IMG/VR virus record: IMGVR_UViG_2667527993_000018
DNA length: 38,304 nucleotides
Origin: a virus
Taxonomy: Duplodnaviria > Heunggongvirae > Uroviricota > Caudoviricetes
Direction: 5' to 3' (one strand)
A model generated the notes under the pieces. That model saw only the letters and a list, made by a program, of their open reading frames with translations, had not been told where the DNA came from and searched no databases. The position numbers and the translations under genes were made by a program. Within the stretch, counting starts at the first letter, position 1, and each line of letters opens with the position of its first letter. Below are positions 4,863 to 38,304 of the stretch, one piece after another.

Positions 4863-5423
4863 TTATTTTTCCGAAACGCTCGCAGGATAATAACGATAAA
4901 GGGTTGAAAGGCCGATATCAAAAATAAGTGCCACCTGTCTTCGACTGACACCCCCGGCCAGTAAACGCCCGACCTGCTCGTATTGTTCCTGCGTGAGACG
5001 ACGGGGTCTGCCGCCGGTTCGTCCCCTTTCACGGGCAGCTGCAAGACCAGCCCGTGTCCGTTCGACAATTAATTCACGCTCCATTTCTGCCAGCGCACCC
5101 ATTATGTGAAAAAAGAAGCGCCCCATGGGGGTTGACGTATCAATGTTGTCAGTAAGACTACGAAAATTTATCCCCTGTTGCTGTAATTCATCTGTCAGCG
5201 CAACAAGGTGGCGCATACTGCGCCCCAGCCTGTCCAGTTTCCAGACCATCAGTGTGTCACCGGGTTTTAGTTTCTTCAGTGCCCGCTTCAGTCCCGGCCG
5301 CTGTGTCGTTTTACCACTCATTTTGTCTTCAAAAATCTGCTCACATCCTGCACATTCCAGCGCATTTCTTTGTAAACCGGTGTTCTGGTCATTTGTTGAT
5401 ACGCGTATATAGCCAATCAGCAT
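4863..5423 (-). CDS. gin: Gin/Hin/Pin/Cin-family serine DNA invertase
   Basis: MLIGYIRVSTNDQ...GRSMRHL... resolvase/invertase catalytic domain plus C-terminal HTH; sits immediately beside the invertible tail-fibre segment. Confidence 0.9.
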   Translation of the reverse strand: MLIGYIRVSTNDQNTGLQRNALECAGCEQIFEDKMSGKTTQRPGLKRALKKLKPGDTLMVWKLDRLGRSMRHLVALTDELQQQGINFRSLTDNIDTSTPMGRFFFHIMGALAEMERELIVERTRAGLAAARERGRTGGRPRRLTQEQYEQVGRLLAGGVSRRQVALIFDIGLSTLYRYYPASVSEK

Positions 5424-7395: not shown

Positions 7396-7955
7396 TAAAT
7401 AGTCTCCTCTTCATGGCTGTTTGCATACACGTAAATAAACGTCTGCCATGCAGGCTTATAACGGTTCAGAATACATTCCAGCGCACCGCCTTCATAAATA
7501 CGCAGCGGCGTGAGAATATCATCCAGCACATTCATATTCCGGTAGCCGGTTTCACTGTTAATCGTGACAATACTGACCCACTGTGAATCCGGTGATGGCT
7601 GAATATCTATTTCATAACCAAACTCTGCCGCAAACCGGATATAAAATTCACGGTTAAGAGAGGGTTTCATCCGGTATTTATTCCCGGCATAACGCTGACG
7701 CTCCTGAATTGTTGCGCCGGTCATATCACATTCCGGTAACCCCAGATAACGCTCCCAGTCTTCCAGCAGCAGACGGGATGAATCAGGAAAACGTTCTGCC
7801 AGCATCTGGTTACCGGTCCAGGAAACACGCTCCGTGGAATGACTGAGGCCCAGGCACAAAGCCGCAAGAACGGATGACGGCCGCTTATCCCATGCCAGCC
7901 CGTCAGGCAGCAACTGCAACAGGGCACGCTGATGCGGGGTCAGGGTTACAGCCAT
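7395..7955 (-). CDS. Tail protein, Mu gp48-like
   Basis: 186-aa ORF between the baseplate J-like gene and S; N-terminal LLPDGLAWDK motif typical of this family. Confidence 0.65.
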   Translation of the reverse strand: MAVTLTPHQRALLQLLPDGLAWDKRPSSVLAALCLGLSHSTERVSWTGNQMLAERFPDSSRLLLEDWERYLGLPECDMTGATIQERQRYAGNKYRMKPSLNREFYIRFAAEFGYEIDIQPSPDSQWVSIVTINSETGYRNMNVLDDILTPLRIYEGGALECILNRYKPAWQTFIYVYANSHEEETI

Positions 7956-9031
7956 GTGATTTCCCCCACGGTCAGCAACTCTGTATCTCCGGCCATCACG
8001 GACTTCAGCGGGCTGCGAACTTCAAAATCCTCCAGTCCTTTCACCCCTGCAACAGCCCGCCAGAATGATGAAGGCAATACAAGTCCACCCGGCCGCGATT
8101 CGTTATAAAGCAGGTCCGTTAATGCCTGTTTTACGGCAGCCTGATTTTCCGGCGTTTTGGGTACAATCCTGATCTCAAACGCCACCGGCTTATTGGTCAG
8201 CTTAAACACGCTGATTGTCGGCCCAAGTGGCTGACCAACGGGCTGGCCCGTCGCCGGATCATCATGACTGCGGATATAATCCGCCACCCGCTTCACATCA
8301 CCTTCTCCGGGGAAAATGTCAGGGTTATTATCCTGAACAAAAGTCACACCAACACTACCCGCCTCAGGCCATTCAGGCTTACACCATGCCCGCGTCACGC
8401 CCGGTACTTCCCGTGCCCAGCGTTCAAAATCATACTGTGTTCCCCCTGATGGCGGGTTCTGTACCCGGAATACCAGCCTGGACAGCAACTCCGGCACCGT
8501 TTCCACATCCGCACCACCGGTGAGTCCCGTGCCGGTGACCGTGGCTGTCTGGTTGATGCCCGCCTGTGGCGTGATAAAGGACAGGCGGGTTCCGGTCGGG
8601 GTATTTCCAGCGCGCCCCGCACTTTCCGCCTCCACATTAACATTCAGTGTTCCGGCTTTTCCGGTCGCAGAGCCGGTGATGCGGTACACAACACCATCGC
8701 TTCGCTGAAGGAGTACGCCTTCCGTGATCCCTGCATCCGTGGTCAGCATCAGTTGTACCGGTCCGTCAGCGCGGGAAGCCGGTTTACGGATGACACCCCA
8801 GAATGCGCAGTGTTTCAGGAGTTCGGCTTCATCAGCTTCTGTCGGAATTATCTGCCGGGAGATCCAGGCCAGATGTTCATGCTCCTGTGCTGACAGACCC
8901 GCCAGTGCATACGCAATGGCATTCAGGGTGGTTTCATTCACGCCCGGCTGCGAACCGGGCAGGCGCTGGCTGATATCCTGTTGTGTCTGTGTGATCAGTT
9001 GCGCCAGTGGTAAGGGCTGATAAGGCATCAT
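7946..9031 (-). CDS. Baseplate J-like protein, Mu gp47-like
   Basis: 361-aa ORF in conserved baseplate position; overlapping start/stop with neighbours. Confidence 0.75.
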   Translation of the reverse strand: MMPYQPLPLAQLITQTQQDISQRLPGSQPGVNETTLNAIAYALAGLSAQEHEHLAWISRQIIPTEADEAELLKHCAFWGVIRKPASRADGPVQLMLTTDAGITEGVLLQRSDGVVYRITGSATGKAGTLNVNVEAESAGRAGNTPTGTRLSFITPQAGINQTATVTGTGLTGGADVETVPELLSRLVFRVQNPPSGGTQYDFERWAREVPGVTRAWCKPEWPEAGSVGVTFVQDNNPDIFPGEGDVKRVADYIRSHDDPATGQPVGQPLGPTISVFKLTNKPVAFEIRIVPKTPENQAAVKQALTDLLYNESRPGGLVLPSSFWRAVAGVKGLEDFEVRSPLKSVMAGDTELLTVGEITWL

Positions 9032-21448: not shown

Positions 21449-21569
21449 ATTGCCTCCGCATAAAGGATGAATATAAAATAAACAGGCGGTCAGTGTACGC
21501 TTAACTGGTAAAGTCGGTGCCTGCCTCCGGGTGGATCATGTATGCGGGTTCAACCCCCGCCACTGACCG

Positions 21570-24483: not shown

Positions 24484-26138
24484 CCCCGATCAAATTCATG
24501 ATATGCCTCATCGTCATCACGATAACCGCCCTCCATGGCCCGCGACCGCTCCGGCAGCGCCTGGCAGGCTGATTCATCCAGGATAAAGCCCTCCATGTAT
24601 GACGCCCGGTTTGCCATACAGAGCGCCACGGCAAAATCACCATGGCGGCGGGCGTTCACAGCTGTTGCGTTCTGGTCCTTCGTACGCCCCTTGTCGATTT
24701 GCGGGATACCGTTCACCACCTTCACATGGCGCAAATCATCAAGCGTGGTCTGATGGCGGGCGACGAGGATATTCTGATCCTCAAACTCGGCCTTCAGTTT
24801 TGGCATCCACTCGCCGTACCACTTCGGCGATAACATCACGCAGTCGATGATGTCCGGGCCAAAGGCCAGCAGCGCGGCTTCGGCCAGATAGCCGCCGTTA
24901 CCGGTGGCGTCGAACGCCGCACCGACCAGCGCCGGAACGCGGGTCAGGATGTACATCATCACCTGCTCCTGCTGGGCATACGGCAGGTTGCGCAGCTCCA
25001 CGCGAAACACCTCGCGTTTTGCCAGGGATTCAGTGATTTCCAGCAGCACAAAGCAGGAGAGGTCACCGGTGCGGGCAAAGTCTTCCCCGAAGCTGAAGCG
25101 GGAACGGGGATTTAACGCCTCTAAAAGCGGTTTTAAATGTTCTTCACACCAGGTTAAAACCTCCGATTCACGCAGCCATGCGGCACGGCTGATGAAGTCG
25201 TCCGGGGCTTCAAACGTCAGAATCGGGATGTCGCGGATCATCGCCATTTCAATAAGCGCGTGAGGAATATAGGCACCGCCGGATTTTTTCGGGATACAGC
25301 CGTATTCCTCGTCGGCATCCTCACGGGTCGGGGCGTTTTTGTAGAGATCATCACGCCACTTCTGCTCGCTTTCCGGTGACCATTCGCGGCCGGTGACATA
25401 ACAGATACGACGGTACAGCCCGTCCGCAATGGCATCATCCAGGGTTATGCGGTGGACACTGTAATCCTTGCGTCCCTCGCGGGCTTCCTGAATGTACTGA
25501 TTAAACAGATTATCGACGCCGTTATGCGTGGAGATAATACGCACGCGCGCGCCCCACATGGTGAGCGCCATTGCCGCCTTGAGAAGCTCATCCAGTGACT
25601 CGTGGAACGCGGCTTCATCAATCACCACATCCCCCTGAAGGCCGCGCAGGTTTGACGGACGGGAAGACAGTGCCTGAATTTTGAATCCACTGTTCGGAAA
25701 GCGGATCATGTAGGTCAGAATTTCTTCTTTTTTATCCCGATCCCAGAAGGTCTGCTCATACACATCAGCATCGGCCAGCTGGTTAAAGGCACGGGAGAAC
25801 AGTGCGCAGGCAGAAATATATTCCAGCGCCATCTCCTGCTTTGACCCCACATAAAACACATTACGGCCACCACGACGCTTAGGCTTTGCGGCGGTAATGA
25901 CGTTACGCCCGGCTTCCGCCCAGGTAAGCCCGGTGCGGCGGGATTTTTCCGCGATGCAGACCTCACTTTCATCCTCAAACCAGCGGGCCTGATAATCCAG
26001 AAACACCGGCATATCACCGGGCAAATCAAGGCTGTCCGGCACATCCACGCCCAGCAGGGCTTTTTCACCGGCCAGATCAATTTTGCGGGTGGAGACGGTA
26101 TTCGTCAGTAAGGGGGAGAGTTCTTCGGCGTTATTCAT
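24474..26138 (-). CDS. Terminase large subunit, Mu E (gp28)-like
   Basis: 554-aa ORF preceded by a small-subunit-like gene and followed by portal. Confidence 0.85.
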   Translation of the reverse strand: MNNAEELSPLLTNTVSTRKIDLAGEKALLGVDVPDSLDLPGDMPVFLDYQARWFEDESEVCIAEKSRRTGLTWAEAGRNVITAAKPKRRGGRNVFYVGSKQEMALEYISACALFSRAFNQLADADVYEQTFWDRDKKEEILTYMIRFPNSGFKIQALSSRPSNLRGLQGDVVIDEAAFHESLDELLKAAMALTMWGARVRIISTHNGVDNLFNQYIQEAREGRKDYSVHRITLDDAIADGLYRRICYVTGREWSPESEQKWRDDLYKNAPTREDADEEYGCIPKKSGGAYIPHALIEMAMIRDIPILTFEAPDDFISRAAWLRESEVLTWCEEHLKPLLEALNPRSRFSFGEDFARTGDLSCFVLLEITESLAKREVFRVELRNLPYAQQEQVMMYILTRVPALVGAAFDATGNGGYLAEAALLAFGPDIIDCVMLSPKWYGEWMPKLKAEFEDQNILVARHQTTLDDLRHVKVVNGIPQIDKGRTKDQNATAVNARRHGDFAVALCMANRASYMEGFILDESACQALPERSRAMEGGYRDDDEAYHEFDRGCW

Positions 26139-26719
26139 CAGGCTTTACCCAACAGAATTCCCTTAATACGGGACTCAAGCTGTTCACTCATCCCGTCCAC
26201 GCCGCGCAGCTCGTCGGTAACCGCGTTTGCCATCTCTTCAGCAAATGCAGCCCGGATTTCTTTTTCACGTTTAATGCTGCGCTCGGCGGCACTTTCCGCA
26301 CGCTGTGCTGACAGGAGGATGTCCTTAATAAGACGCATATCCACGTCGCTGTCACTGTTCAGGGATTCGGTCGCGGCACGCAGACGGCGGTACATCAGGG
26401 CGCGGGACATCTCCAGAATCAGTGCCGTGGTTTCACCGGTCGGCTTGTCCCCCAGTTCGGCCATCATGGCTTTTGTCTGCTCGCGTAAATCACGCAGGTT
26501 ACGGGCAATCAGCTCATTACGGGAGGCTTCCCGGCTGATGGCCGCCGGTGAAAGCTGCTGCTCTTCCGGCAGGCCTGCCTCGCGGATCAGACGGTTGATT
26601 TCCTCGCGGATCTGGACCTGCGTCAGACGTTTTTCACGCAGCATTTCCAGCAGTGGCTTACGGATGCTGTCGGGGAGCAAATCCACCTTGCGCACGCGGC
26701 CACGCGTCGGCTTGTCCAT
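26138..26719 (-). CDS. Terminase small subunit-like protein, Mu D (gp27)-like
   Basis: 193-aa basic/acidic helical protein immediately upstream of and overlapping the large terminase start. Confidence 0.6.
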   Translation of the reverse strand: MDKPTRGRVRKVDLLPDSIRKPLLEMLREKRLTQVQIREEINRLIREAGLPEEQQLSPAAISREASRNELIARNLRDLREQTKAMMAELGDKPTGETTALILEMSRALMYRRLRAATESLNSDSDVDMRLIKDILLSAQRAESAAERSIKREKEIRAAFAEEMANAVTDELRGVDGMSEQLESRIKGILLGKA

Positions 26720-26721
26720 CG

Positions 26722-27012
26722 CTACCCCCTTGCGCGTGGTTTCTTCACACCCGGAACGGTGGCGCGGCCTTCCGCCACATCCTGACCCCGGCCGGTCAGT
26801 TCAGCGATGAAATAACCATTAACGAGCGTGCGCTTACGCACCAGCCCCTGCTCGGCAAGCCAGGCAATATGAGTATGAACGGTGTCGCGGGACACGCGGT
26901 GACCGTAATCATCCAGACAGTCCTGGAGCACGGATTCACCCAGTTCGCCGTTGTAATCCGCCAGCGACCGCAGAATGACAAGACGCTGATCTTCAGTAAT
27001 GAAATCACTCAT
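26722..27012 (-). CDS. Hypothetical protein, Mu gp26-position
   Basis: 96-aa ORF, conserved position before the terminase genes. Confidence 0.45.
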   Translation of the reverse strand: MSDFITEDQRLVILRSLADYNGELGESVLQDCLDDYGHRVSRDTVHTHIAWLAEQGLVRKRTLVNGYFIAELTGRGQDVAEGRATVPGVKKPRARG

Positions 27013-27317
27013 TGTGTTTTTTTCCTTACCGCCTGCTCCAGCAGCAGTTCGTTCTGATAGGAGACAGAGCGGAGCGTGGCGTTCGTGGTTTTCAGTTCAC
27101 CCCGCAGGGTCACGATTTCCACATTCAGACGGTTGACCTCGGCTTCTGTCGGCAGTGACGACAGGCGGGTTTCCACCTTCTCAACGCGGTCGGAGAGTTT
27201 TTCAAAGGCCTCGCGGGGGACAAACGTTTTGCGCATCAGCGCCATGAATATCCCGCCAGCGGTTGCCGTCGCCGAAAGGATCGGCACAACATAATCTTTA
27301 ACGATGCTGACCCACAT
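27009..27317 (-). CDS. Membrane protein, Mu gp25-like (candidate endolysin release factor)
   Basis: 102 aa; N-terminal hydrophobic segment (VVPILSATATAGGIFMAL) followed by a coiled-coil-like region; position downstream of the lysis genes as for Mu gp25. Confidence 0.45.
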   Translation of the reverse strand: MWVSIVKDYVVPILSATATAGGIFMALMRKTFVPREAFEKLSDRVEKVETRLSSLPTEAEVNRLNVEIVTLRGELKTTNATLRSVSYQNELLLEQAVRKKTQ

Positions 27318-27525
27318 GACGGGCCTCCATGATGTTCTGGCAGTTCACACAACGGATGGCATCCGGCACAGCAACAAGACGTGCGGCGGGGATCTCTCCG
27401 CCACAGTCCGCGCAGACACGTCTGCCCGGAGCATCCATTGCCCGGCGCTTACGTGTCAGCCGGTTACAAAGGGCGCGTTCTGATCCCCGCTCCATCACAG
27501 CCTGAGCACGATCTGAATCATCCAT
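27298..27525 (-). CDS. TraR/DksA-type C4 zinc-finger protein
   Basis: CADCGGEIP...AIRCVNCQ four-cysteine motif; AAGGAAAAAGG upstream of the ATG at 27525. Confidence 0.6.
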   Translation of the reverse strand: MDDSDRAQAVMERGSERALCNRLTRKRRAMDAPGRRVCADCGGEIPAARLVAVPDAIRCVNCQNIMEARHVGQHR

Positions 27526-27535
27526 ACCTTTTTCC

Positions 27536-27907
27536 TTACTTCGTCTTTCCTGCCGGAACAGCAGGCGTTCCGGCCATATCAGTAAATTCATGTTGTCGCC
27601 GCGCCTCCAGACGACGAATACTGGCCTTGTCCACGTTGCAGTTCTTGATCACCGCCAGCAGTTGCAGGTTGTAAGTGACCGATGCCCCAAACGTGAACGG
27701 CTCCGGCGCAGGAGGGACCAGGCAGTCAGCCAGCCATTCAGCGGGGATCGGCACCGGCTTCACAGGCACGTATTTCACAGACGGCCCGGCGCACCCGATC
27801 AGCCACATCATCAGGAACAGGGGCAGAGGCCGCAGGCACTGCCTCCAGCGACCGGCGGACAACGCTCTGCTGCCCCTCGCTGTGCTGAATGTTCTGTTGT
27901 TTTTCAT
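27536..27907 (-). CDS. Putative o-spanin (outer-membrane lipoprotein, Rz1-like)
   Basis: Frame overlapping the i-spanin 3' half; lipobox-like LIGC followed by a proline-rich stretch (PVKPVPIP...PPAPEP); start codon uncertain. Confidence 0.35.
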   Translation of the reverse strand: MKNNRTFSTARGSRALSAGRWRQCLRPLPLFLMMWLIGCAGPSVKYVPVKPVPIPAEWLADCLVPPAPEPFTFGASVTYNLQLLAVIKNCNVDKASIRRLEARRQHEFTDMAGTPAVPAGKTK

Positions 27908-28238
27908 TCGTGGCCGCCTCACTGATTTGTGAAATGAGTTGCAGGGTGTGCTGCTGATTTGCCAGCACCTGACGCGCCTCATCCCGCTCACGCACAAGCA
28001 CCTGATTATTGTCTTCAAGGCGCTGCGTCTTCTGGTGCATTCCCCATATAGCGGCAACCAGTACAGCGATAATCCCCAGCGCCGCCATGCACGCCCCGGC
28101 AATCAGGGCCGGTAAGGCATTATTCACCGCAGCCACAGGACACCCCGTAACAGCAGTACCGCACACAGCAGCGCTATCATGAGCGGTCGCCAGAAGCGGT
28201 TCAGACTTTCGGCAAGTCGTAGCGACATAACCATTCAT
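27738..28238 (-). CDS. Putative i-spanin (Rz-like)
   Basis: Hydrophobic TM segment (ALPALIAGACMAALGIIAVLVAAIWG) followed by Gln/Arg-rich coiled-coil region; directly downstream of endolysin; start uncertain. Confidence 0.45.
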   Translation of the reverse strand: MNGYVATTCRKSEPLLATAHDSAAVCGTAVTGCPVAAVNNALPALIAGACMAALGIIAVLVAAIWGMHQKTQRLEDNNQVLVRERDEARQVLANQQHTLQLISQISEAATNEKQQNIQHSEGQQSVVRRSLEAVPAASAPVPDDVADRVRRAVCEIRACEAGADPR

Positions 28239-28701
28239 CCGCCGAACGGCGGGCCTCAAGGCCGGGGAGTTTCACCCCCTTTGAATAAATCCAGCGGATA
28301 TACTGCTTACAGGACGCGGGCATCTGCCCGGCATTGATCAGGCGCAGAAGCGTGGAGTTGCGAAAGTTCGTTTCACCGGCCCAGAAGATCCACGAAGCCA
28401 GCGCCACCGTCTGACCACGGGTAAGCGGCACCTGAACACGCCGATCAATGGCCGCAAAGGCCCATTTCATGTCCTTTTCCAGTAGTTCCAGGCATTCTTC
28501 ATCTGTCAGGGTCATACCCGGTTTCACATCCGGGCCGGTATGGCCGTAACAGATGGTGGGTGTACCGGTGGGATCGATATACGTGGAGTTTTCTTTCCCT
28601 TCCCAGTAACCGGTGTAATGCGTGGCAATCGTGAACGTCCCGGCACCGGCCAGAACAAGGGCAATCAGCTTTTTACGCAGTGGTGCGGGGAGTTTTGGCA
28701 T
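28201..28701 (-). CDS. Endolysin (lysozyme family) with N-terminal SAR-like signal-anchor
   Basis: 166 aa; N-terminal Gly/Ala-rich weakly hydrophobic segment (LIALVLAGAGTFTIATHY) then a lysozyme-like catalytic region beginning YWEGKENSTYIDPTGTPTICYGHT. Confidence 0.75.
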   Translation of the reverse strand: MPKLPAPLRKKLIALVLAGAGTFTIATHYTGYWEGKENSTYIDPTGTPTICYGHTGPDVKPGMTLTDEECLELLEKDMKWAFAAIDRRVQVPLTRGQTVALASWIFWAGETNFRNSTLLRLINAGQMPASCKQYIRWIYSKGVKLPGLEARRSADEWLCRYDLPKV

Positions 28702-28772
28702 TGTTACGCTGTCTCATGATGTTCTCTGAGTCAGCGTAACGGTGAAGGAGAGGCGGCAGGCTTTGCGGAATA

Positions 28773-29198
28773 TCAGAAAAGTGGCGGTTGCGTTCTTGCC
28801 AGATGCAGACGGCGCTGTTCGCGTATGACGGTATAAATCTGGGTTTCTGACATCCGGTAATGGCGGCGAAGGGATTCAATTTTCTCGCCCCGGTCCCAGC
28901 GCGAAAATATCTCATTGTTTCGCAGCTCGGCAAAGAGAGATTCCCCGACCGGCAGGTAATAACCCCGTCCGCCCATATAGGCTGCCTGAGCCGCAGCCAC
29001 CTTGCGTGCCAGTTTACCGGCCAGTACCGGCTCAATCCCCTGACGCTGAAGTTCTGCGCCGGTGACTTCAACCAGTTCTGACAGGGTCCGCGGCCAGTTC
29101 TTTTTGAGAACATCATCAGGGATGTCATCAAGGCGGTCGATAAGGGCGTGCAGTTGCTCACTGTCACCACCAAACATGCTCATCTGAGTTTCTGCCAT
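28773..29198 (-). CDS. Mor/C-family transcriptional activator of middle/late genes
   Basis: 141 aa; GGAGG 6 nt upstream of the ATG at 29198; located between gemA and the lysis genes as Mor/C are in Mu. Cannot distinguish Mor from C. Confidence 0.7.
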   Translation of the reverse strand: MAETQMSMFGGDSEQLHALIDRLDDIPDDVLKKNWPRTLSELVEVTGAELQRQGIEPVLAGKLARKVAAAQAAYMGGRGYYLPVGESLFAELRNNEIFSRWDRGEKIESLRRHYRMSETQIYTVIREQRRLHLARTQPPLF

Positions 29199-29228
29199 AT
29201 CAGCCTCCGGTTCTCGCGTTCCCGGTAA

Positions 29229-29262
29229 GTTTAAAATAAAAATCCCGCGTTGTGGCGGGATT
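29229..29262 (-). terminator. Rho-independent terminator after gemA
   Basis: Perfect 8-bp stem AATCCCGC / GCGGGATT with 6-nt loop, followed on the minus strand by TTTATTTTAAAC. Confidence 0.55.
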
Positions 29263-29267
29263 TGGGG

Positions 29268-29777
29268 TTAACGGGGAAGTGATTTTTCATACTGCCTGCA
29301 AACGGCGTCATACCCCATCAGCGTGCGTTCGGGCATTCCCATCGCGGCCAGCATTTTGCGGCGGTGCCATCGCTTGAGACGCTCCAGCACATCTGAGGCC
29401 AGGGCGGGGTGTTGCTCCAGCCACTGCCAGTTTGCCACACCTTCGCCGCCGTTCTGCGCGGCCGTCTGCGATTTCACCCAGCGGTTAAGAGCGGTTTCCG
29501 CACCATCAGAGATAAAGCCCTGCCGGTGCATCACTTTCCAGATGGCGCGAATTTTGGCGGTCACCGTACCCGGTTTTAAGGCCCGGTTAACCGGTTTCTG
29601 ACGCACTTTAAAACCGCGTTTTTTGAAAACATCCAGCACGCGGGATAACTCACCGGGTGACATATCCCGGCAGCTGGTTTTGCCGGTGGCTGCCAGTAGT
29701 ACGAATGTGTAGGTCTCATCATCCAGGGCAAGCTCGCGCTTTGCCACATGAATAGCGGATATCAGTTTCCCTCTCAT
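29268..29777 (-). CDS. GemA-like protein (Mu gp16 family)
   Basis: 169 aa; N-terminus MRGKLISAIHVAKRELALDDETY...TGKTSCRDMSPGEL matches the pattern I recall for the gp16/GemA family; position just upstream of Mor/C. Confidence 0.65.
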   Translation of the reverse strand: MRGKLISAIHVAKRELALDDETYTFVLLAATGKTSCRDMSPGELSRVLDVFKKRGFKVRQKPVNRALKPGTVTAKIRAIWKVMHRQGFISDGAETALNRWVKSQTAAQNGGEGVANWQWLEQHPALASDVLERLKRWHRRKMLAAMGMPERTLMGYDAVCRQYEKSLPR

Positions 29778-30070
29778 GCTGTATCAACACTCCTGCTGAT
29801 ATGATAGATATTACTTTCCCGATCGAGCTGAACCCGATACTCCGGAGGAATCACAAAAATATTAAAACCATCATCAGTTTTTATTCTTGAGTAGTATTCC
29901 CCCTTATGATATCTGGCAAGTGCATTAATCAGAGAAGTCGCCGCCAGCCCAATCAGGTATTTTTTATGAAAAATACTGATAACTTTCCGGCACAGCCATC
30001 GTGTAATGACGAATGCACCGAAAAACGATGTGATATATAAACACCAGAACAACTGCGAACTACTGTCCAT
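29774..30070 (-). CDS. Hypothetical membrane protein (98 aa)
   Basis: N-terminal TM segment (LFWCLYITSFFGAFVITRWL); part of an AT-rich four-gene block with overlapping starts and stops. Confidence 0.45.
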   Translation of the reverse strand: MDSSSQLFWCLYITSFFGAFVITRWLCRKVISIFHKKYLIGLAATSLINALARYHKGEYYSRIKTDDGFNIFVIPPEYRVQLDRESNIYHISRSVDTA

Positions 30071-30257
30071 TATCTTTCTCCTTATTCAGTCTTCTGCGAC
30101 ATTCGGCACAGTCATCAGGGCTTTCAAATGTATCCGGCTCGCGATTATGAGCCAGATATAACCACCGCCTACATATACTGATATTATCGCCAGTTTTAAA
30201 AAAATGATGCTTCTTAGCCATCAGAGGGCGCGCCCATCCAGCGGGTAGACTATTCAT
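30060..30257 (-). CDS. Hypothetical small protein (65 aa), Cys/His-containing
   Basis: ORF overlapping both neighbours; AT-rich. Confidence 0.4.
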   Translation of the reverse strand: MNSLPAGWARPLMAKKHHFFKTGDNISICRRWLYLAHNREPDTFESPDDCAECRRRLNKEKDNGQ

Positions 30258-30624
30258 TTGCTTTATCCTCCATACTGGACAAAATCATCTGTATTAATGT
30301 CGGGCGTGGAGATATACGCATTTCATTAAGCGTCTGAAGGGCAGCAACAGCTGCCTGTTTATCGGTGCCTTTGGCAATTTCCGCAAGAGAATGCACAATC
30401 CATAACGGACTTAACGCCACGACTGAATCCAGAATCATGTCATCCATAATAATTTCTGACACATCCCGCTTATCACATTCCTTATCCATAAAAGAAACGA
30501 TTTTTTCCACATCTTCCGGTTTCATGCCTCCGGCGATAAGAAATTTGCGATACTCATAAGACGATCTTAATTCAATACTCATATTCATCTCCTGTAACTC
30601 TGACAAGGACGTGATTTTTCTCAT
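30250..30624 (-). CDS. Hypothetical acidic protein (124 aa)
   Basis: ORF in the AT-rich block (~38-45% GC by eye versus ~55-60% in the phage body). Confidence 0.45.
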   Translation of the reverse strand: MRKITSLSELQEMNMSIELRSSYEYRKFLIAGGMKPEDVEKIVSFMDKECDKRDVSEIIMDDMILDSVVALSPLWIVHSLAEIAKGTDKQAAVAALQTLNEMRISPRPTLIQMILSSMEDKANE

Positions 30625-30806
30625 TTATGTTTTCCAGTAATACGGATATATATGTCGATAAGAAGATTCATAATAAACAGGAAGAGCGACATCCTGATAA
30701 AGAACCAAATATCTGGCATCATGGACAGGTTTCCTGTAATCGCAAATATAAAACCAACCCCCAACACCGGAACGAAAATTGCGAAAAATACAAGTCTCTT
30801 TATCAT
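30621..30806 (-). CDS. Hypothetical small membrane protein (61 aa, two predicted TM helices)
   Basis: Strongly hydrophobic (FFAIFVPVLGVGFIFAITG ... FFIRMSLFLFIMNLLIDIYI); first gene of the AT-rich block. Confidence 0.45.
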   Translation of the reverse strand: MIKRLVFFAIFVPVLGVGFIFAITGNLSMMPDIWFFIRMSLFLFIMNLLIDIYIRITGKHK

Positions 30807-31354
30807 GGCGTTAACTCCCGTAATACAGCGTCCTCGGCAGTCCGGCGATGGTGATAAATAAAATTCACCGTACTCTCGGATAATTCAAATTTCTCGCCGA
30901 TTTCCCTAAAGGTAAGACGCCGTGGTGATTCAGCATCCCGTAATTCACGAATAAGATGAACATCATCGTCAGGTATGCGGGTAAAAGGCAGTAATTCTCC
31001 GTATTTTTTCATGCTTACGCCAATATATCGCGCCCGATTGTGGACAGAATCCCGGTCTCGCCCCAGATATTCTCCTATTTGCTTACCTGTCATCGTCCTG
31101 GCATTTTTTCGGATAAATTTATCTTCATCAGGTTTAAATCTGAGGCGTTTGCATTTGAGCAACTCCGGGTAAGTACCGCGTAATAAAACAATCCGGTTAT
31201 GTACACCCCAGAAACTTCTTTTTATCCTGACAGCAATATCCTTAACCGGGGTGGATGGATAAAGCGCAATCAGCAGCGCATCTTCTTCAGGTGTCCACGC
31301 ACGGACATGAGCGGGTGCACGGCCTTTTCGCCCCATGGGTTGTAAAATCATCAT
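30803..31354 (-). CDS. Hypothetical DNA-binding protein (183 aa) with HTH-like segments
   Basis: W-x-PEED-x-LLI segment near N-terminus and a C-terminal stretch (LTFREIGEKFELSESTVNFIYHHRR) resembling a sigma-region-4/HTH motif; assignment by pattern only. Confidence 0.4.
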   Translation of the reverse strand: MMILQPMGRKGRAPAHVRAWTPEEDALLIALYPSTPVKDIAVRIKRSFWGVHNRIVLLRGTYPELLKCKRLRFKPDEDKFIRKNARTMTGKQIGEYLGRDRDSVHNRARYIGVSMKKYGELLPFTRIPDDDVHLIRELRDAESPRRLTFREIGEKFELSESTVNFIYHHRRTAEDAVLRELTP

Positions 31355-31357
31355 ACA

Positions 31358-31873
31358 TCACCCCCTGACTCGCTTTTCAGCAGCATAAAACTCATCAGAC
31401 AGAATTTCGGTCATTTTCCGTTTTGCGGAATCATCTTCGCACTGAAGGTAAATAACATCGTCAACGCAGAACCACTTCACGGGACCATGCAATATTGCTG
31501 AAAAGTCAATGCCCAGCCAGAACAACAGGGCATCGGTTCTGGCATACGTGACGGGCGAATATTCACGCCACAGACTGTTAAGTTCGTCAGAGGCAACGCG
31601 CAGGGCTTTGGGAATACGTGATGTGCGCGGTGTGCAGCTCCAGCCATTCGACGCAGTCGGTTTTCGCCATAAGTCGCGATGAAAAGGATATTTGTCATCC
31701 ATAAAGCGCAGCCCTTTAAAACAAAAGCCACTGATACCGGATACAAATACCGACCGGCACGCAACATTCAGCACGGCCTCAAGGCGTTTTGCCTCATCCT
31801 TAACTTTCTGGCAGTCCTGCTGATATTTTTTCCACGCGGCCAGCGCGGAAGGGTTTGATGTTTTAAAGAACAT
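31358..31873 (-). CDS. Hypothetical early-region protein (171 aa)
   Basis: ORF in operon context with overlapping start/stop. Confidence 0.45.
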   Translation of the reverse strand: MFFKTSNPSALAAWKKYQQDCQKVKDEAKRLEAVLNVACRSVFVSGISGFCFKGLRFMDDKYPFHRDLWRKPTASNGWSCTPRTSRIPKALRVASDELNSLWREYSPVTYARTDALLFWLGIDFSAILHGPVKWFCVDDVIYLQCEDDSAKRKMTEILSDEFYAAEKRVRG

Positions 31874-32406
31874 TACGCCACCTCCGCAGATATCCCGGCA
31901 GGCGCGGCCGTCCGGTCAACAATCAGGTAACGCAGAACACGCGCGGTGATATTCCAGCCGCTTAAACCGCAGATGATGACACCCAGGCGTATGTCGATAT
32001 ACGCCATCACAAACTGGGGCACGCCTTCTTTCATGGCCTGCTCATCAACTTCAGCCACCACATAAACGGTTTCACAGGTCAGAACGCCCTGAGCAAATTC
32101 CCACGCCATTGACGGAATATCATGCCCCTCAATCCACGGCAGGGATTTTCTGAAGCTGCACCACTGAACATCATCAGCCGCACCTTCCTGGCTGCATTTG
32201 CGACGAACCGGCTGCACCGGGCGGGGACGCGGAATATCATAAAAACCGTTACATTCCGTCAGCACCCCGGCATCGACCGCATCACGCAGAAAATAAACCA
32301 TCGAGGATGGCGGCATATTCATTTTTTCAGCCAGAATGCCGCAGGTCAGACGCCCGTAAATACTCAGCCAGTTTTTAACCCCTTCAAGCACTTTTGCATC
32401 AATCAT
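31873..32406 (-). CDS. Hypothetical early-region protein (177 aa)
   Basis: ORF in operon context. Confidence 0.45.
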   Translation of the reverse strand: MIDAKVLEGVKNWLSIYGRLTCGILAEKMNMPPSSMVYFLRDAVDAGVLTECNGFYDIPRPRPVQPVRRKCSQEGAADDVQWCSFRKSLPWIEGHDIPSMAWEFAQGVLTCETVYVVAEVDEQAMKEGVPQFVMAYIDIRLGVIICGLSGWNITARVLRYLIVDRTAAPAGISAEVA

Positions 32407-33049: not shown

Positions 33050-33580
33050 TTATTTGTTCAGTCCGGCGTCCTGTTCAAAAGGCTCGACATAAAAACTTTC
33101 AGCGCCTTTATTCACCTTAATACCGGCAATCCCTTTCACCGCATCCGGCTCCGCCAGGACCGCTTCCTTGTTCACTTCCTCTTTCGTGCGGATGAATCGC
33201 TCAAGACCCATACGGCGCAGCATTTCAATCACACCTTCCACATCACGGCTGACGCTGCATGATGGCGTTCCCAGCCGCCATGACACCGTTCCGGTGGTCA
33301 GATTGGCAGTTTTTGTTTTGCCGCCGTTCGTCAGCTCATCGCGGTTGGTTTTGCACCAGTCCTGAATCCCCTTAAAAAGCACTTTGATTTCTTTTTTAAG
33401 GTTTTCAATCTGCGGCGTATAACGGGCGGTGATTTCTGCCACCTCGTCATTCATCGCTGTTTCCAGGCGCAGCGCCTCTCGCTGAATATCGCCCAGGGTG
33501 CGGATATCGCGGCTGACTTCTTCGCGGGTCTGCGGTGCCGCCTCTGCTGCGGCCTTTAATTTTGTAACGCGTTTTGCCAT
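33050..33580 (-). CDS. gam: Gam-like host-nuclease inhibitor (DNA-end binding protein)
   Basis: 176 aa; MAKRVTKLKAAA...IRTLGDIQREALRLETAMNDEVAEIT...NRDELTNGGKTKTANLTTGTVSWR...ERFIRTKEEVNKEA closely matches the Mu Gam sequence as I recall it. Confidence 0.85.
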   Translation of the reverse strand: MAKRVTKLKAAAEAAPQTREEVSRDIRTLGDIQREALRLETAMNDEVAEITARYTPQIENLKKEIKVLFKGIQDWCKTNRDELTNGGKTKTANLTTGTVSWRLGTPSCSVSRDVEGVIEMLRRMGLERFIRTKEEVNKEAVLAEPDAVKGIAGIKVNKGAESFYVEPFEQDAGLNK

Positions 33581-34708: not shown

Positions 34709-34936
34709 TTAGCTGACTTGTTTCGCACCAACAGAACGGCATATTCCGCTGTAAACGTCTGTCGCACCTTCGCGATCAAGTCCGGCAGATATCACCATTC
34801 GTGTGCGGTCATTAAATTCAAAAAGTAAATCGCCACATTCTTTATTTTCGGCCAGTGAAATCACCTTCACGTTATCGAAATTAACCAGGTAAAAGCGTCC
34901 GTAAATATCAGGAATATTAAATACCGCCATAATCAC
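34709..34936 (-). CDS. Hypothetical small protein in the position of Mu kil
   Basis: 75-aa ORF immediately downstream of B, overlapping its stop; call is positional only. Confidence 0.4.
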   Translation of the reverse strand: MIMAVFNIPDIYGRFYLVNFDNVKVISLAENKECGDLLFEFNDRTRMVISAGLDREGATDVYSGICRSVGAKQVS

Positions 34937-35865
34937 ACCTGTGAGAGTAATTCAGGGTTGGTATAAACCTCTTTAAAGGCCGCATTAATATGTTTTTCTG
35001 TCAGCGCCGCGCCTTCACCGCTGGCGGTGAGCCACGCCTGGTTAAGCGTATGTGTCAGAACGCGTAACGCTCCCGGCTTTTCAGCGATAGCCTGCATGAC
35101 GGCCAGCTCGGCCTCACCACTGATCCCCCACGCCCTGGCAATGGCCAGCACATCCGCCTTTTTGGCCTTGCGAAGTTGTTTTGTACGGGCAAGACGGCTG
35201 AACAGGCGCGATAAATCATCAAAGGCGCGGCGTCCACCTTTAAACAATCCGCGTGGGTTACCAATAAGCACCATCCCGATCCCCGTGGCGTCCTGAATTG
35301 CCCGGAGTTGCTCCAGACCGTCAATACCAAGATGATCCGCCTCATCCACAATCACCAGTCCACGCGTTCCCATCAGGCGACGGCGGATGGCGCGGGATAA
35401 TGCCCCTTTGTTCGCGCGGGTGTAATCAATCCCCAGCGCATCGGCCAGCTCCAGCAGACACTCCGTGACGCTGGAGTGCGCGGGTGACAGGGTGATCATC
35501 CAGGTGTTTGGTTGCTCCTGGCAGTAATTACGGGCAGTGGCCGTTTTACCCACACCCGGTACGCCCACGATGACGTTAATACAGCCCATCAGGCGAACCG
35601 CCTGAAACAGTGCGCGCAGCTCCTGGACTGTCTGCGTTTCCACAAACTGCGGCGGTTCCGGCAGTGCGCTTTGTTTATTCCAGTTCTCATACCAGGAGCG
35701 CAGGGAAGCAGCCACAGCAGCGTTATCGCCTTTATATTTCCCCTTGCGGAAAGCCGATAATGTGCCGTCGGAAATTCCCGCCTCTCTGGCGATGGCATAC
35801 TGCGTCAGTACGCCGCCATCAATAAGTTCATCAATGGTCTTGATTACATCGTTAATATCAGTCAT
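34933..35865 (-). CDS. B: Transposition ATPase B (MuB-like target DNA activator)
   Basis: 310 aa; N-terminal HTH then AAA+ ATPase with Walker A GVPGVGKT and Walker B LVIVDEADHL; directly downstream of the transposase. Confidence 0.9.
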   Translation of the reverse strand: MTDINDVIKTIDELIDGGVLTQYAIAREAGISDGTLSAFRKGKYKGDNAAVAASLRSWYENWNKQSALPEPPQFVETQTVQELRALFQAVRLMGCINVIVGVPGVGKTATARNYCQEQPNTWMITLSPAHSSVTECLLELADALGIDYTRANKGALSRAIRRRLMGTRGLVIVDEADHLGIDGLEQLRAIQDATGIGMVLIGNPRGLFKGGRRAFDDLSRLFSRLARTKQLRKAKKADVLAIARAWGISGEAELAVMQAIAEKPGALRVLTHTLNQAWLTASGEGAALTEKHINAAFKEVYTNPELLSQV

Positions 35866-35936: not shown

Positions 35937-38027
35937 TCAGGCCAGCGGGTCATTTTCTTTTAATTTCGCTTCCAGCAACTGCAATCCCCGCTGGAAATTA
36001 CGCTCGTATTCTTCATCAGGCTCATCATCAACGGCAGGTTGCTGAACGGCCACCGTATTACCTAACGGGCGATAGATGTTTTCCAGCCACGGCTCCTGCG
36101 GCTTGTGCTCCAGCACGTTGACCACCTCATCCTCGGCATCGCGGATTTTTTCCTCTGCGCGTTTACGCATGCCTTTAAGGCGTTGCTGCTGTTTGTAGTA
36201 TTCCGCGCTGACCGGGAAGGCTTCGCGTTTATTGCCGTCCCATACCGCCTCGCAAATCACGCTGCCATCCAGGCGACGCACGGTAATTCGTTCGGCATCA
36301 TGAATGTCATAGCTGATAAGCACCTTACGACCATGCTCGTCACGCAGCTCGGGCGCGTAGTAAATATTATTCAGCCAGCGTATTTCACAGCGTCTTACAG
36401 GGCGTTCCACCATCGGCCGGAACATATCCCGCAGCTCAACATCGGACAGCCATTCAATTTCCGTGTCCTCTTCCGCCAGGCGTTTTTTTCTGAACTCCGC
36501 CGGGCTGTAATGTTTACCGTTCGGCTTCATCGGTAATTCATCGTGCGGCCGGTTGTTGTACCACTCAACACCGTCACGAATGGCATCAATCAGTTCAGCC
36601 CAGGACGGTAAATCACGCATCGCTGACTGTTGCCGGGCGTTCAGCCGTTTGCCCTGTTGCAGGGCGGTAAATGCCGAGCGTAAATCGCGGTTGGTTTTGC
36701 GTAACGTCTCGCGATCTGCACCTTTCCCGAAATAGGTGCGGTATTTACGGGCTATGCGCATCGGTAATGTGCGGTTAAGCCGTTCGATAATGCCTCGCCC
36801 CTGCGGATTACCGGCAATCCCGGTCGGGTGATTAATCCCCAGTCGCGGCAGTATCCCCACAACCTCCTTATCCAGGACGTCGGCGGTTTCCCCGGAGCCG
36901 TTATCCGAGTAATACAGAAACGGTTTGCCGTGATGGCGAATGCCGTGCTGTATGGCACCGGCTACGGCGAAAACATTTTCAGCCAGGTCAAGGCTCCAGC
37001 CCACCACAAAGCGCGTGCCACCGTCGATAACAAAGGTCACTTCCGGTGCAAATGGCCGACCGTGAACCGGGTGTGCGCATTTCAGCTTCATGCCGTGACC
37101 GTCACCAATCCAGACATAATTCACCGGCATTCTGGACCAGTCGCGGCGCGTGAATCCCTCAAGCTGGCGGTATTCACTGCCGGTCACCCGGCCTTTTTGT
37201 TTCACCACTTCCGGCAGTTTCTTCATTGCGCGGCGAATGGTGTCATAAGACGGCATGATATCGAGCATATAAGGCTCATCAGCGTGCCGGTGCTGCCATT
37301 CAGCGACAAAATCCTCGTAAGCCTCGGTCATTGGTCGGCCGTTTGACTGGCGATACTGCGCCAGAAATTCGGGCAGCCAGTTAATATCTTCGGCTTTTAT
37401 TTCCTGGCGCTTACCCGGTGCCAGTAAAAGCAGGCGTTCAGCGGCGTTCTGCGCCTTGTTAAAGGCCGCAATCCAGCGTTTCAGCGTTATTTCACTCAAC
37501 GCACGGCTGTTTCCCTTTTTGGCGTTCGCCGTCTCAACCATTGCCACAATGCGCTCGTCCAGTTGCGAACGTGCCAGGTTGTCAACGATAAACCGGATAG
37601 CTTTCGCACAGCTGAAACCGGGTTGTTGCGCGACTTTCATCACTTCGCTGACGATCGCGATTCGTGCATCAGCCACCTGGCGCTGGTTTTCAGTCAGGGC
37701 ATTAAGGCGTTCAACCATCAGTTGTGGTGATCCGCGATATGCCTCCACCGCATCAACCACGGCAGGCGAGCGTCTGGCCTTTGTCACCACCGGAGCCGGT
37801 GATTCATCAGCTTTTTGCGTCATCAGTTGAAGGGCATAACGTTCACGCAATACTTGTTGCGCGCCAGAAGGCAAACAATCGATATTAAATTCGATTGCTT
37901 TTGTCCCCTTACGTTTGCGTAACATGGCTGCATTTCCCGCAGCTGCTTTTGTGAGTCGATGGCGAATGTTATGTTCCATCATTGGTAAATCAGGAAGACC
38001 AACACATTCTTTTGCTGTTACCCACAT
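35937..38027 (-). CDS. A: DDE transposase A (MuA-like)
   Basis: ~696-aa ORF; N-terminus MWVTAKECVGLPDLP parallels MuA (MELWVSPKECANLPGLP); central region has a DDE-type core; the ATG at 38027 avoids overlap with ner (the ORF track starts at 38048). Confidence 0.9.
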   Translation of the reverse strand: MWVTAKECVGLPDLPMMEHNIRHRLTKAAAGNAAMLRKRKGTKAIEFNIDCLPSGAQQVLRERYALQLMTQKADESPAPVVTKARRSPAVVDAVEAYRGSPQLMVERLNALTENQRQVADARIAIVSEVMKVAQQPGFSCAKAIRFIVDNLARSQLDERIVAMVETANAKKGNSRALSEITLKRWIAAFNKAQNAAERLLLLAPGKRQEIKAEDINWLPEFLAQYRQSNGRPMTEAYEDFVAEWQHRHADEPYMLDIMPSYDTIRRAMKKLPEVVKQKGRVTGSEYRQLEGFTRRDWSRMPVNYVWIGDGHGMKLKCAHPVHGRPFAPEVTFVIDGGTRFVVGWSLDLAENVFAVAGAIQHGIRHHGKPFLYYSDNGSGETADVLDKEVVGILPRLGINHPTGIAGNPQGRGIIERLNRTLPMRIARKYRTYFGKGADRETLRKTNRDLRSAFTALQQGKRLNARQQSAMRDLPSWAELIDAIRDGVEWYNNRPHDELPMKPNGKHYSPAEFRKKRLAEEDTEIEWLSDVELRDMFRPMVERPVRRCEIRWLNNIYYAPELRDEHGRKVLISYDIHDAERITVRRLDGSVICEAVWDGNKREAFPVSAEYYKQQQRLKGMRKRAEEKIRDAEDEVVNVLEHKPQEPWLENIYRPLGNTVAVQQPAVDDEPDEEYERNFQRGLQLLEAKLKENDPLA

Positions 38028-38037
38028 ACATCCCCCA

Positions 38038-38304
38038 TCAAGCCACATCTCTGGCGTCCACCTGGTATCTGCTGGGCCAGATTACAGCAGGTTCAACCCC
38101 TATTTTTTCGGCGATGGCGGCTTCGTATTTACGGCACTGGCGGTAAAACACATTGCGCATTGATCCGCTTTTTAATCCTAACTCCCTTTCCAGTTCAGGG
38201 AGGTCTGTGCCTTTGTTTTCAAGGGCTGCATATACCGCTTTAGCAGACCAGTCACACCCCTCTCGAACAAACAAATTATTCGATGCTTGTCTGGATACCC
38301 TCAT
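38038..38304 (-). CDS. ner: Ner-like DNA-binding transcriptional regulator
   Basis: C-terminal ...EPAVIWPSRYQ matches the Ner/Nlp family signature; the ATG coincides with the window edge, so the true start may lie outside the window. Confidence 0.75.
   Translation of the reverse strand: MRVSRQASNNLFVREGCDWSAKAVYAALENKGTDLPELERELGLKSGSMRNVFYRQCRKYEAAIAEKIGVEPAVIWPSRYQVDARDVA

Follow-up and report, generated by a model that had tools for sequence, protein, structure and literature searches.

What are the four small open reading frames (ORFs) at positions 29774 to 30806 of a Mu-like prophage of Escherichia coli, did they arrive together, and what might they do for the phage? The window, i.e. 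the whole stretch of 38,304 nucleotides that we analyzed (IMG/VR record IMGVR_UViG_2667527993_000018), is such a prophage and is read along its minus strand. A first-pass annotation, made from the sequence alone, had described the four ORFs as an AT-rich cassette of small membrane and unknown proteins that was acquired separately. We call their products p61, p110, p65 and p98; all four ORFs are co-directional on the minus strand, and the first-pass annotation had placed them correctly (Table 1). They lie downstream of a homologue of Mu gp12 and of a gene for a helix-turn-helix (HTH) protein and upstream of GemA and Mor, on the same strand as transposase A and the B ATPase. Hence the block lies inside the early region of a Mu-like prophage, as had been proposed, and gene annotation and Pfam domains agree on this. 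The reading we favor is that these are four independently exchangeable accessory genes in a hypervariable slot of the early region, and that they are, most likely, dispensable factors of host takeover or competition; on balance, we think that this is probably right.

To characterize the slot, we surveyed 5,426 complete E. coli genomes. The flanking genes were carried by 232 of them, and the interval between these genes varied in length, coverage and content, even among otherwise closely related prophages. At least five gene sets were documented between the HTH gene and GemA: (i) p61, p110, p65 and p98, as in the window; (ii) a gene of 103 amino acids (aa), X, a 116-aa gene, Y, and p110, p65 and p98; (iii) X, Y, a variant of p110, and a reverse-strand DUF2513 gene; (iv) X and an allele of p98; and (v) X, a 95-aa ORF resembling Mu gp14 by eye, and a reverse-strand 79-aa ORF. 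The position of p61 is occupied in other variants by an unrelated gene of 103-110 aa. p61 itself was found in 109 genomes, and the window-type alleles of p65 and p98 in 62. One related prophage (L006) has p98 without p61, and another (L013) combines p61 with a different allele of p98. Recombination breakpoints were located at the ribosome-binding site of p110 and inside p98, after its transmembrane (TM) segment. The genes thus assort independently, which, together with the breakpoints, means that the supposed four-gene cassette was not acquired as a unit but is a snapshot of a recombination hot spot.

Some of the alternative occupants deserve mention. A viral contig of Mu proper (L063) carries a p110-like gene and a reverse-strand DUF2513-like gene before GemA. 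The reverse-strand DUF2513-type genes lie just before GemA at positions 878-1288 of prophage L005 and 3250-3666 of L063, and, since Mu gp15 is also reversed there, reverse-strand genes recur at this place. In addition, a 252-aa ORF of L063 (2217-2975) ends in the Cys-rich sequence of Mu gp13, being either a fusion of gp13 to a novel N-terminal domain or an ORF call that merges two genes. A DUF551-like identity was considered for the family of gene X and gained no support from Pfam.

The block had also been described as AT-rich relative to its surroundings. Its guanine-plus-cytosine (GC) content is 40.5%, compared to 53.7% for the whole window, and among sliding windows of 1,033 nt (mean 0.538, standard deviation 0.048) the global minimum starts at 29776. 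With windows of 400 nt, GC stays at 0.38-0.45 over 29600-31000, compared to 0.55-0.62 over 26000-29600. Codon usage follows the same trend, as GC at third codon positions (GC3) is 0.40-0.44 in the four ORFs and 0.63 in GemA and 0.64-0.66 in the head genes. The block is thus the GC minimum of the window, and its base composition is unlike that of neighboring genes. The contrast holds against the late genes and against GemA and Mor, while upstream it is weaker. The step on the GemA side is abrupt (GC3 of 0.40 in p98 versus 0.63 in GemA), whereas the upstream step is gradual, with GC3 of 0.408 in the 183-aa HTH gene and 0.52 in gp12. Moreover, the early region as a whole (30-35 kb) has a GC content of just 0.42-0.50, below that of the late region. 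With its GC3 of 0.41, the HTH gene belongs to the low-GC3 block, and because the upstream step is gradual, the deviant block is better drawn as 29774-31354; the extent of 29774-30806 given originally is too short. Drawn in this way, the AT-rich block comprises five genes. A search for direct or inverted repeats around the block gave nothing meaningful and hence no indication of a discrete mobile element. In the reading we favor, the modules were acquired through recombination with a pool of phage genes richer in AT.

The four genes are tightly packed with the surrounding early genes. The HTH gene and p61 overlap by 4 nt, p110 and p65 by 8 nt, p65 and p98 by 11 nt, and p98 and GemA by 4 nt. The overlapping starts and stops noted in the first-pass annotation are therefore present at these junctions; p61 and p110, however, are separated by a 38-nt spacer if p110 starts at Met15 (see below). 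When the interval 28600-32000 was scanned with a strict sigma-70 consensus, the coding strand showed nothing resembling a promoter; on the same strand, the sole terminator-like element was a hairpin with a T-run between GemA and Mor. Given the packing with early genes and the lack of a promoter or terminator of their own, we infer that the four genes are expressed as part of the early lytic operon. In Mu, this operon is repressed in the lysogen. Their products would appear along with transposase, Gam and GemA as soon as the phage infects or is induced; the repressed lysogen would not express them. Roles during lytic growth are possible, judging from this arrangement. The roles raised in the first-pass annotation, i.e. 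superinfection exclusion, host killing and anti-defense, are conjectural. GemA and Mor are 69 nt apart, and the hairpin between them has a 9-bp, G+C-rich stem followed by TTATTTT. In the textbook Mu layout, mor ends the early operon; if the hairpin is functional, early transcription would be attenuated ahead of mor.

The same arrangement bears on whether the genes are morons. Like the morons of lambdoid phages, they are non-essential genes of deviant composition that are inserted between conserved ones. A moron is transcribed autonomously, with a promoter and a terminator of its own, and is expressed from the prophage. Unlike morons, the four genes have neither a promoter nor a terminator detectable by the consensus scan, and they overlap their neighbors. 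We therefore rejected this identity.

Two of the proteins are predicted to be membrane-associated. p61 (isoelectric point, pI, 10.4) has hydrophobic segments at about residues 4-24 and 33-55 and a KHK tail, and the hydropathy profile agrees with the two TM segments reported earlier. By the positive-inside rule, it is predicted to form an N-in/C-in hairpin in the inner membrane. Only close relatives of p61 were found, with 84-100% identity. p98 has the single N-terminal hydrophobic segment (residues 7-23) that had been taken for an anchor. Since the basic stretch RWLCRK follows this segment, the protein is predicted to be N-out/C-in with a cytoplasmic C-terminal domain of ∼75 aa. Only 6 clusters of p98 homologues were found, and every named one comes from E. 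coli. There are two alleles, which share about 90% identity in residues 1-30 and about 32% in the remainder. Therefore p98 undergoes domain-level shuffling, in which the TM anchor is conserved and the C-terminal domain is swapped. Such a pattern would be expected for a protein that tracks a variable target.

We also considered p61 as a class II holin or pinholin. It resembles these proteins in its small size, two TM segments, and charged C-terminus. However, it shares no homology with them, is encoded in the early operon outside the lysis cassette (GemA and Mor separate it from the endolysin, 1.9 kb downstream), and matches no holin model of Pfam or PHROG. The position in the early operon makes a holin role disfavored.

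The membrane proteins invite an explanation different from ours, namely, that p61 and/or p98 belong to a lysogenic-conversion or superinfection-exclusion module, are expressed in the lysogen, and block entry of incoming phage DNA, as is done by P22 SieA, HK97 gp15, and phi80 Cor. Both proteins are small, presumably membrane-associated, and variable among related prophages, and AT-rich inserts of temperate phages often hold such genes. On the other hand, the coding strand lacks any promoter-like site, terminators do not flank the block, and its junctions overlap early lytic genes. The bulk of p98 would be cytoplasmic by the positive-inside rule, and none of the proteins matches an exclusion or defense family in PHROGs or PADLOC. 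The lack of a detectable promoter of their own within the early lytic operon argues against any role in the repressed lysogen, exclusion included, and we consider this explanation unlikely.

Alternatively, p61 and p98 could act in the lytic cycle, in exclusion or in host shut-down, in the manner of the T4 early genes imm and sp, with p65 and p110 as unrelated passengers. T4 Imm has two TM segments, and Sp has an N-terminal anchor. p61 is similar to Imm in size, TM number, and the charged C-terminus, and p98, like Sp, has an N-terminal anchor and a domain of ∼75 aa; the location in the early operon also fits. But p61 shows no homology to Imm, nor p98 to Sp, and neither protein resembles any annotated family. 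Moreover, the domain of p98 is predicted to be cytoplasmic, while Sp acts in the periplasm, and p61 and p98 occur without each other, as the prophages L006 and L013 demonstrate. This makes a joint Imm/Sp-like function rather improbable.

Compared to p61 and p98, which have few relatives, p65 belongs to a very broad family. A profile search against 1.84 billion representatives yielded at least 982 clusters (at 50% identity) with E ≤ 1e-3, mostly stand-alone proteins of 60-75 aa. Among the long members of the family, checked for informative fusions, there were only one DUF551 match and one weak match. The protein contains 3 Cys and 3 His, as the first-pass annotation had implied in calling it a Cys/His protein. 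In an alignment of 147 diverse members (28-61% identity), the only invariant columns are H18, C29, C50, and C53, all potential metal ligands, while G7, W8, K16, F20, and S27 are near-invariant. We interpret the four invariant residues, which persist across a divergent family, as the signature of a putative structural zinc site of the His-Cys3 type. With these metal-ligand-type residues (H, C, CxxC), p65 resembles small zinc-binding phage proteins with a zinc ribbon or treble clef, e.g. Mu Com and Mu gp13. The family is not represented by any Pfam model. The AlphaFold model (predicted local distance difference test, pLDDT, of 76) shows short strands and, from residue 51 onward, a C-terminal helix that begins at the CxxC. 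It has no significant structural neighbor in PDB, and its neighbors in BFVD are uncharacterized proteins of the same family. The p65 profile weakly matched two BPTI mutants among PDB sequences (E = 0.002), with a beta-hairpin and a C-terminal helix in the same order. Structure comparison did not confirm this match, and p65 does not show the six conserved cysteines in three disulfides and the Kunitz fold that define a Kunitz/BPTI domain; we retain the match just as an unconfirmed lead.

Homologues of p65 occur in diverse contexts: immediately before GemA in a Mu-like prophage of Salmonella, in the early and nin-like regions of lambdoid or P22-like phages, in an early cluster of small hypothetical genes of the lytic Pseudomonas phage 14-1 (gp85), and in over 100 further records of Pseudomonas phages, most of them PB1-like. 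In prophage copy L016 (IMG/VR contig 2654587996_000001, at about position 4600), a homologue of p65 is frameshifted by a 1-nt deletion in a run of seven T, and the same is true for P0017. This means that p65 is dispensable in at least some prophages.

A more specific role can be imagined. In transposable phages, the gp12-GemA interval may be an island dedicated to competition or anti-defense, comparable to the anti-CRISPR locus that Mu-like phages of Pseudomonas carry, and the p65 family may consist of His-Cys3 zinc mini-proteins with which Mu-like, lambdoid, and lytic PB1-like phages inhibit a conserved factor of bacteria. p65 might have a topology of a beta-hairpin plus a helix that recalls Kunitz inhibitors, with zinc in place of disulfides. 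We put this forward as a speculative proposal with a small chance of being correct.

The last of the four proteins, p110, is acidic (pI 4.8), in agreement with its initial description, while the length of 124 aa given there corresponds to an alternative upstream ATG at 30624. The start is most likely Met15 (window position 30582). An AGGAG motif precedes this ATG by 6 nt, PGAP annotates a protein of 110 aa, and the alignment to phrog_1988 begins at residue 15. In addition, in a variant prophage with a different upstream gene, homology begins just before the ribosome-binding site of p110. The protein is predicted to be all-helical and cytoplasmic. Its relatives were found in 43 viral contigs, and the one distant member that was inspected lies in a Mu-type early region. 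The name "HEAT repeat", given by NCBI to one variant of p110, was not supported, as p110, the proteins P0035 and P0034, and the SfMu-type homologues have no HEAT match in Pfam at E ≤ 5.

Comparison with Mu and SfMu places the four genes among the non-core contents of the region. Between gp12 and GemA, Mu carries gp13 (Cys-rich, 60 aa), gp14, and gp15, the latter on the opposite strand. Mu gp13-15 and SfMu ORF13-16 occupy the identical slot, after gp12 and directly before gemA, and in both cases are small genes of unknown function; in Mu, there is also a dip in GC at the slot, albeit a milder one (0.45 versus about 0.52). None of the four proteins matched Mu gp13, gp14, or gp15 better than E = 3 in BLASTP, and p61, p65, and p98 showed no similarity to any protein of Mu or SfMu. 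In particular, Mu gp13 is Cys-rich and zinc-ribbon-like but unrelated to p65, and gp15, encoded on the opposite strand, differs from all four in orientation. The only protein with a counterpart is p110, a true homologue of SfMu ORF14 (gp14; BLASTP, 37% identity, E = 2e-15), which itself has no homologue in Mu or D108 (PMC4406740). As to the SfMu record, the unannotated gap at 7443-7956 of NC_027382 (3779-4292 of L002) encodes a gp12 homologue without an intact start in frame, probably a frameshifted or mis-annotated gene.

This comparison also bears on whether the four genes serve core or semi-core early functions of Mu, such as helpers of replicative transposition, and merely look AT-rich. 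They do lie in the semi-essential early region beside GemA, and p110 is conserved, with 33-38% identity, in SfMu-type and Yersinia Mu-like phages. However, none of the four is found in Mu itself, they are present or absent among near-identical prophages, and p65 is frameshifted in some copies (L016 and P0017). Their absence from Mu and the presence/absence polymorphism make a core role in transposition very unlikely. The synteny comparison thus separates these genes from the core early genes of Mu.

All four ORFs are genuine protein-coding genes under purifying selection. Pairwise Nei-Gojobori estimates against diverged copies gave ratios of nonsynonymous to synonymous substitution rates (dN/dS) of 0.07-0.43 overall, specifically 0.20-0.43 for p61, 0.13-0.21 for p110, 0.07-0.11 for p65, and 0.14-0.17 for p98 between its two alleles. 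That the ORFs are spurious products of AT-rich non-coding or regulatory DNA, e.g. an H-NS-bound spacer, might be thought from the low GC and the very short ORFs (61 and 65 aa), but it is effectively refuted by dN/dS well under 1 in all four, by strong PHROG profile matches, by the hundreds of clusters homologous to p65 with four invariant residues, and by the ribosome-binding sites and PGAP calls.

The favored reading, that of exchangeable accessory genes engaged in host takeover or competition, is modeled on known phage accessory genes. The accessory genes of hypervariable regions described by Silas et al. are similar in size (40-110 aa), fast turnover, dispensability, and location between conserved genes. 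One validated example, gnarl2, is Mu E6/Mup07, a small gene likewise found in the Mu early operon, which alters the O-antigen when expressed (PMC12373910); the four proteins differ from it in sequence (BLASTP E = 1.9). By analogy with such validated genes, the four proteins most likely bind host or competitor factors. Each would bind a separate target of the host or of a rival phage early in lytic growth. p61, as a two-TM hairpin, and p98, through its anchored cytoplasmic domain, would act at the inner membrane, whereas the acidic, helical p110 and p65, a small and putatively zinc-binding protein, would act in the cytoplasm.

Several observations weigh against this reading. Every database match of the four proteins is to a family of unknown function; the PHROG families 19804, 1988, 2358, and 17269 are matched significantly and all belong to this category. 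PADLOC profiles for defense and candidate defense systems gave 0 families for all four proteins at E ≤ 1, and exact-string searches for six short motifs of the four proteins retrieved none from the supplementary files of a preprint on an accessory-gene screen. The topologies of p61 and p98 and the zinc binding of p65 are predictions from sequence, and the AlphaFold model of p110 (six helices, pLDDT 53) is unreliable and too poor for a fold search. Moreover, the conservation of p110 across Mu-like phages of E. coli, Shigella, and Yersinia could reflect a more phage-intrinsic role, such as transposition or replication, instead of one in an arms race. Finally, since the promoter scan used a strict sigma-70 consensus, weak or non-canonical promoters in the AT-rich DNA are possible, and the four genes may be expressed in lysogens to some degree.

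Other searches gave the following. Pfam and NCBIfam scans yielded nothing significant for the four proteins, and neither did phmmer searches of p65, p110, and p98 against PDB sequences. Word-indexed homologue searches retrieved close relatives only (17 for p65, 6 for p98, and 13 for p110), and no papers were found under the RefSeq accessions and PHROG identifiers of the four proteins. The initial statement that no function could be assigned stands, as Pfam, NCBIfam, PADLOC, PDB sequences, and fold searches provide none.

Table 1. Coordinates of the four genes, their neighbors, and associated signals in the window
Feature	Position	Strand	Match or remark
Transposase A	35937-38048	-	
B ATPase	34933-35865	-	
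Gam	33050-33580	-	
Protein with Mu Gp11 C-terminal domain	31873-32406	-	
Mu gp12 homologue, 171 aa	31358-31873	-	phrog_2314; conserved left flank of the variable slot
HTH/Myb-like DNA-binding protein, 183 aa	30803-31354	-	phrog_323 "transcriptional regulator, D5-like", E = 1e-58
p61, basic, 61 aa	30621-30806	-	phrog_19804, E = 1e-5, unknown function
Spacer p61-p110, 38 nt (if Met15 start)	30583-30620	-	holds AGGAG ribosome-binding site of p110
p110, acidic, 110 aa	30250-30582	-	phrog_1988, E = 5e-44
p65, basic, 65 aa	30060-30257	-	phrog_2358, E = 3e-33
p98, N-terminally anchored (predicted), 98 aa	29774-30070	-	phrog_17269, E = 9e-66
GemA (gp16 family)	29268-29777	-	Pfam GemA PF06252, E = 1e-29; PGAP "gp16 family protein"; conserved right flank of the variable slot
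Terminator-like hairpin and T-run, just downstream of GemA	29240-29263	-	consensus scan
Mor	28773-29198	-	

The rest of the prophage follows the Mu-like gene order, with transposase A, B ATPase, Gam, Mu Gp11_C, gp12, GemA, Mor, endolysin, spanins, and head and tail genes. The lysis genes, transposase, B ATPase, Gam, Mu Gp11_C, GemA, and Mor were identified in the Mu order by PGAP and Pfam, and homologues of gp12, gp11, and a DUF5420-like protein by BLASTP. The gp12 homologue is 53% identical to Mu gp12 over 168 aa (BLASTP, E = 1e-63). The HTH gene, whose HTH matches in Pfam are weak, is not found in Mu, yet it is carried by all E. coli variants examined (L004-L007).

The endolysin (28201-28701) has a basic start followed by a hydrophobic N-terminal stretch (LIALVLAGAGTFTIA) and in this resembles a signal-anchor-release (SAR) endolysin like that of Mu; no obvious candidate for a holin gene lies beside it. 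Mu-type lysis employs a SAR endolysin and a "releasin", not a holin. A Mom-family gene (689-1426) marks the right end of the prophage, and ORF 1-696 is a truncated host gene that retains the C-terminal part of a glycoside hydrolase of family 65 (GH65), so the prophage appears to be inserted into the host GH65 gene and to disrupt it. Between Mom and a Gin-like invertase (4863-5423), there is a gene for a 685-aa protein (2715-4772) with a SASA carbohydrate-esterase domain and DUF6645, which could be a tail-fiber or receptor-modifying enzyme of the invertible host-range region. In the identical RefSeq prophage, PGAP called a "tRNA-OTHER" between the virion morphogenesis and minor head genes, corresponding to about 21489-21568 of the window (790-869 of L001). 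ARAGORN and Rfam (at the gathering threshold) found nothing there, and there was no tRNA or Rfam match in the whole window.

An annotated, 100% identical copy of the examined segment is carried by E. coli STEC2017-197, and related copies are found in many O157:H7 and other Shiga toxin-producing E. coli (STEC) genomes. The Mu-like prophage of O157 Sakai has been named Sp18 and is predicted to be intact (PMC2669165), and the prophage in the window appears to be of the Sp18 type. The slot is thus a routine accessory-gene hot spot of a known prophage family that includes the Mu-like prophages of O157:H7 and other STEC. In hundreds of genomes, the products of the four genes already carry the annotation "hypothetical protein", and PHROGs includes them. 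What is new, to a modest degree and in descriptive terms, is that the interval between gp12 and GemA behaves as a hot spot and that the p65 family is broad and bears a His-Cys3 signature.

The analysis places p65 in a phage protein family that is very broad, lacks annotation, and putatively binds zinc; a single experiment, on whichever member, would suffice to annotate hundreds of clusters. The slot between the gp12-like and HTH genes and GemA is positionally fixed and easily recognized, and is therefore a systematic source of accessory genes for screens of counter-defense and exclusion.

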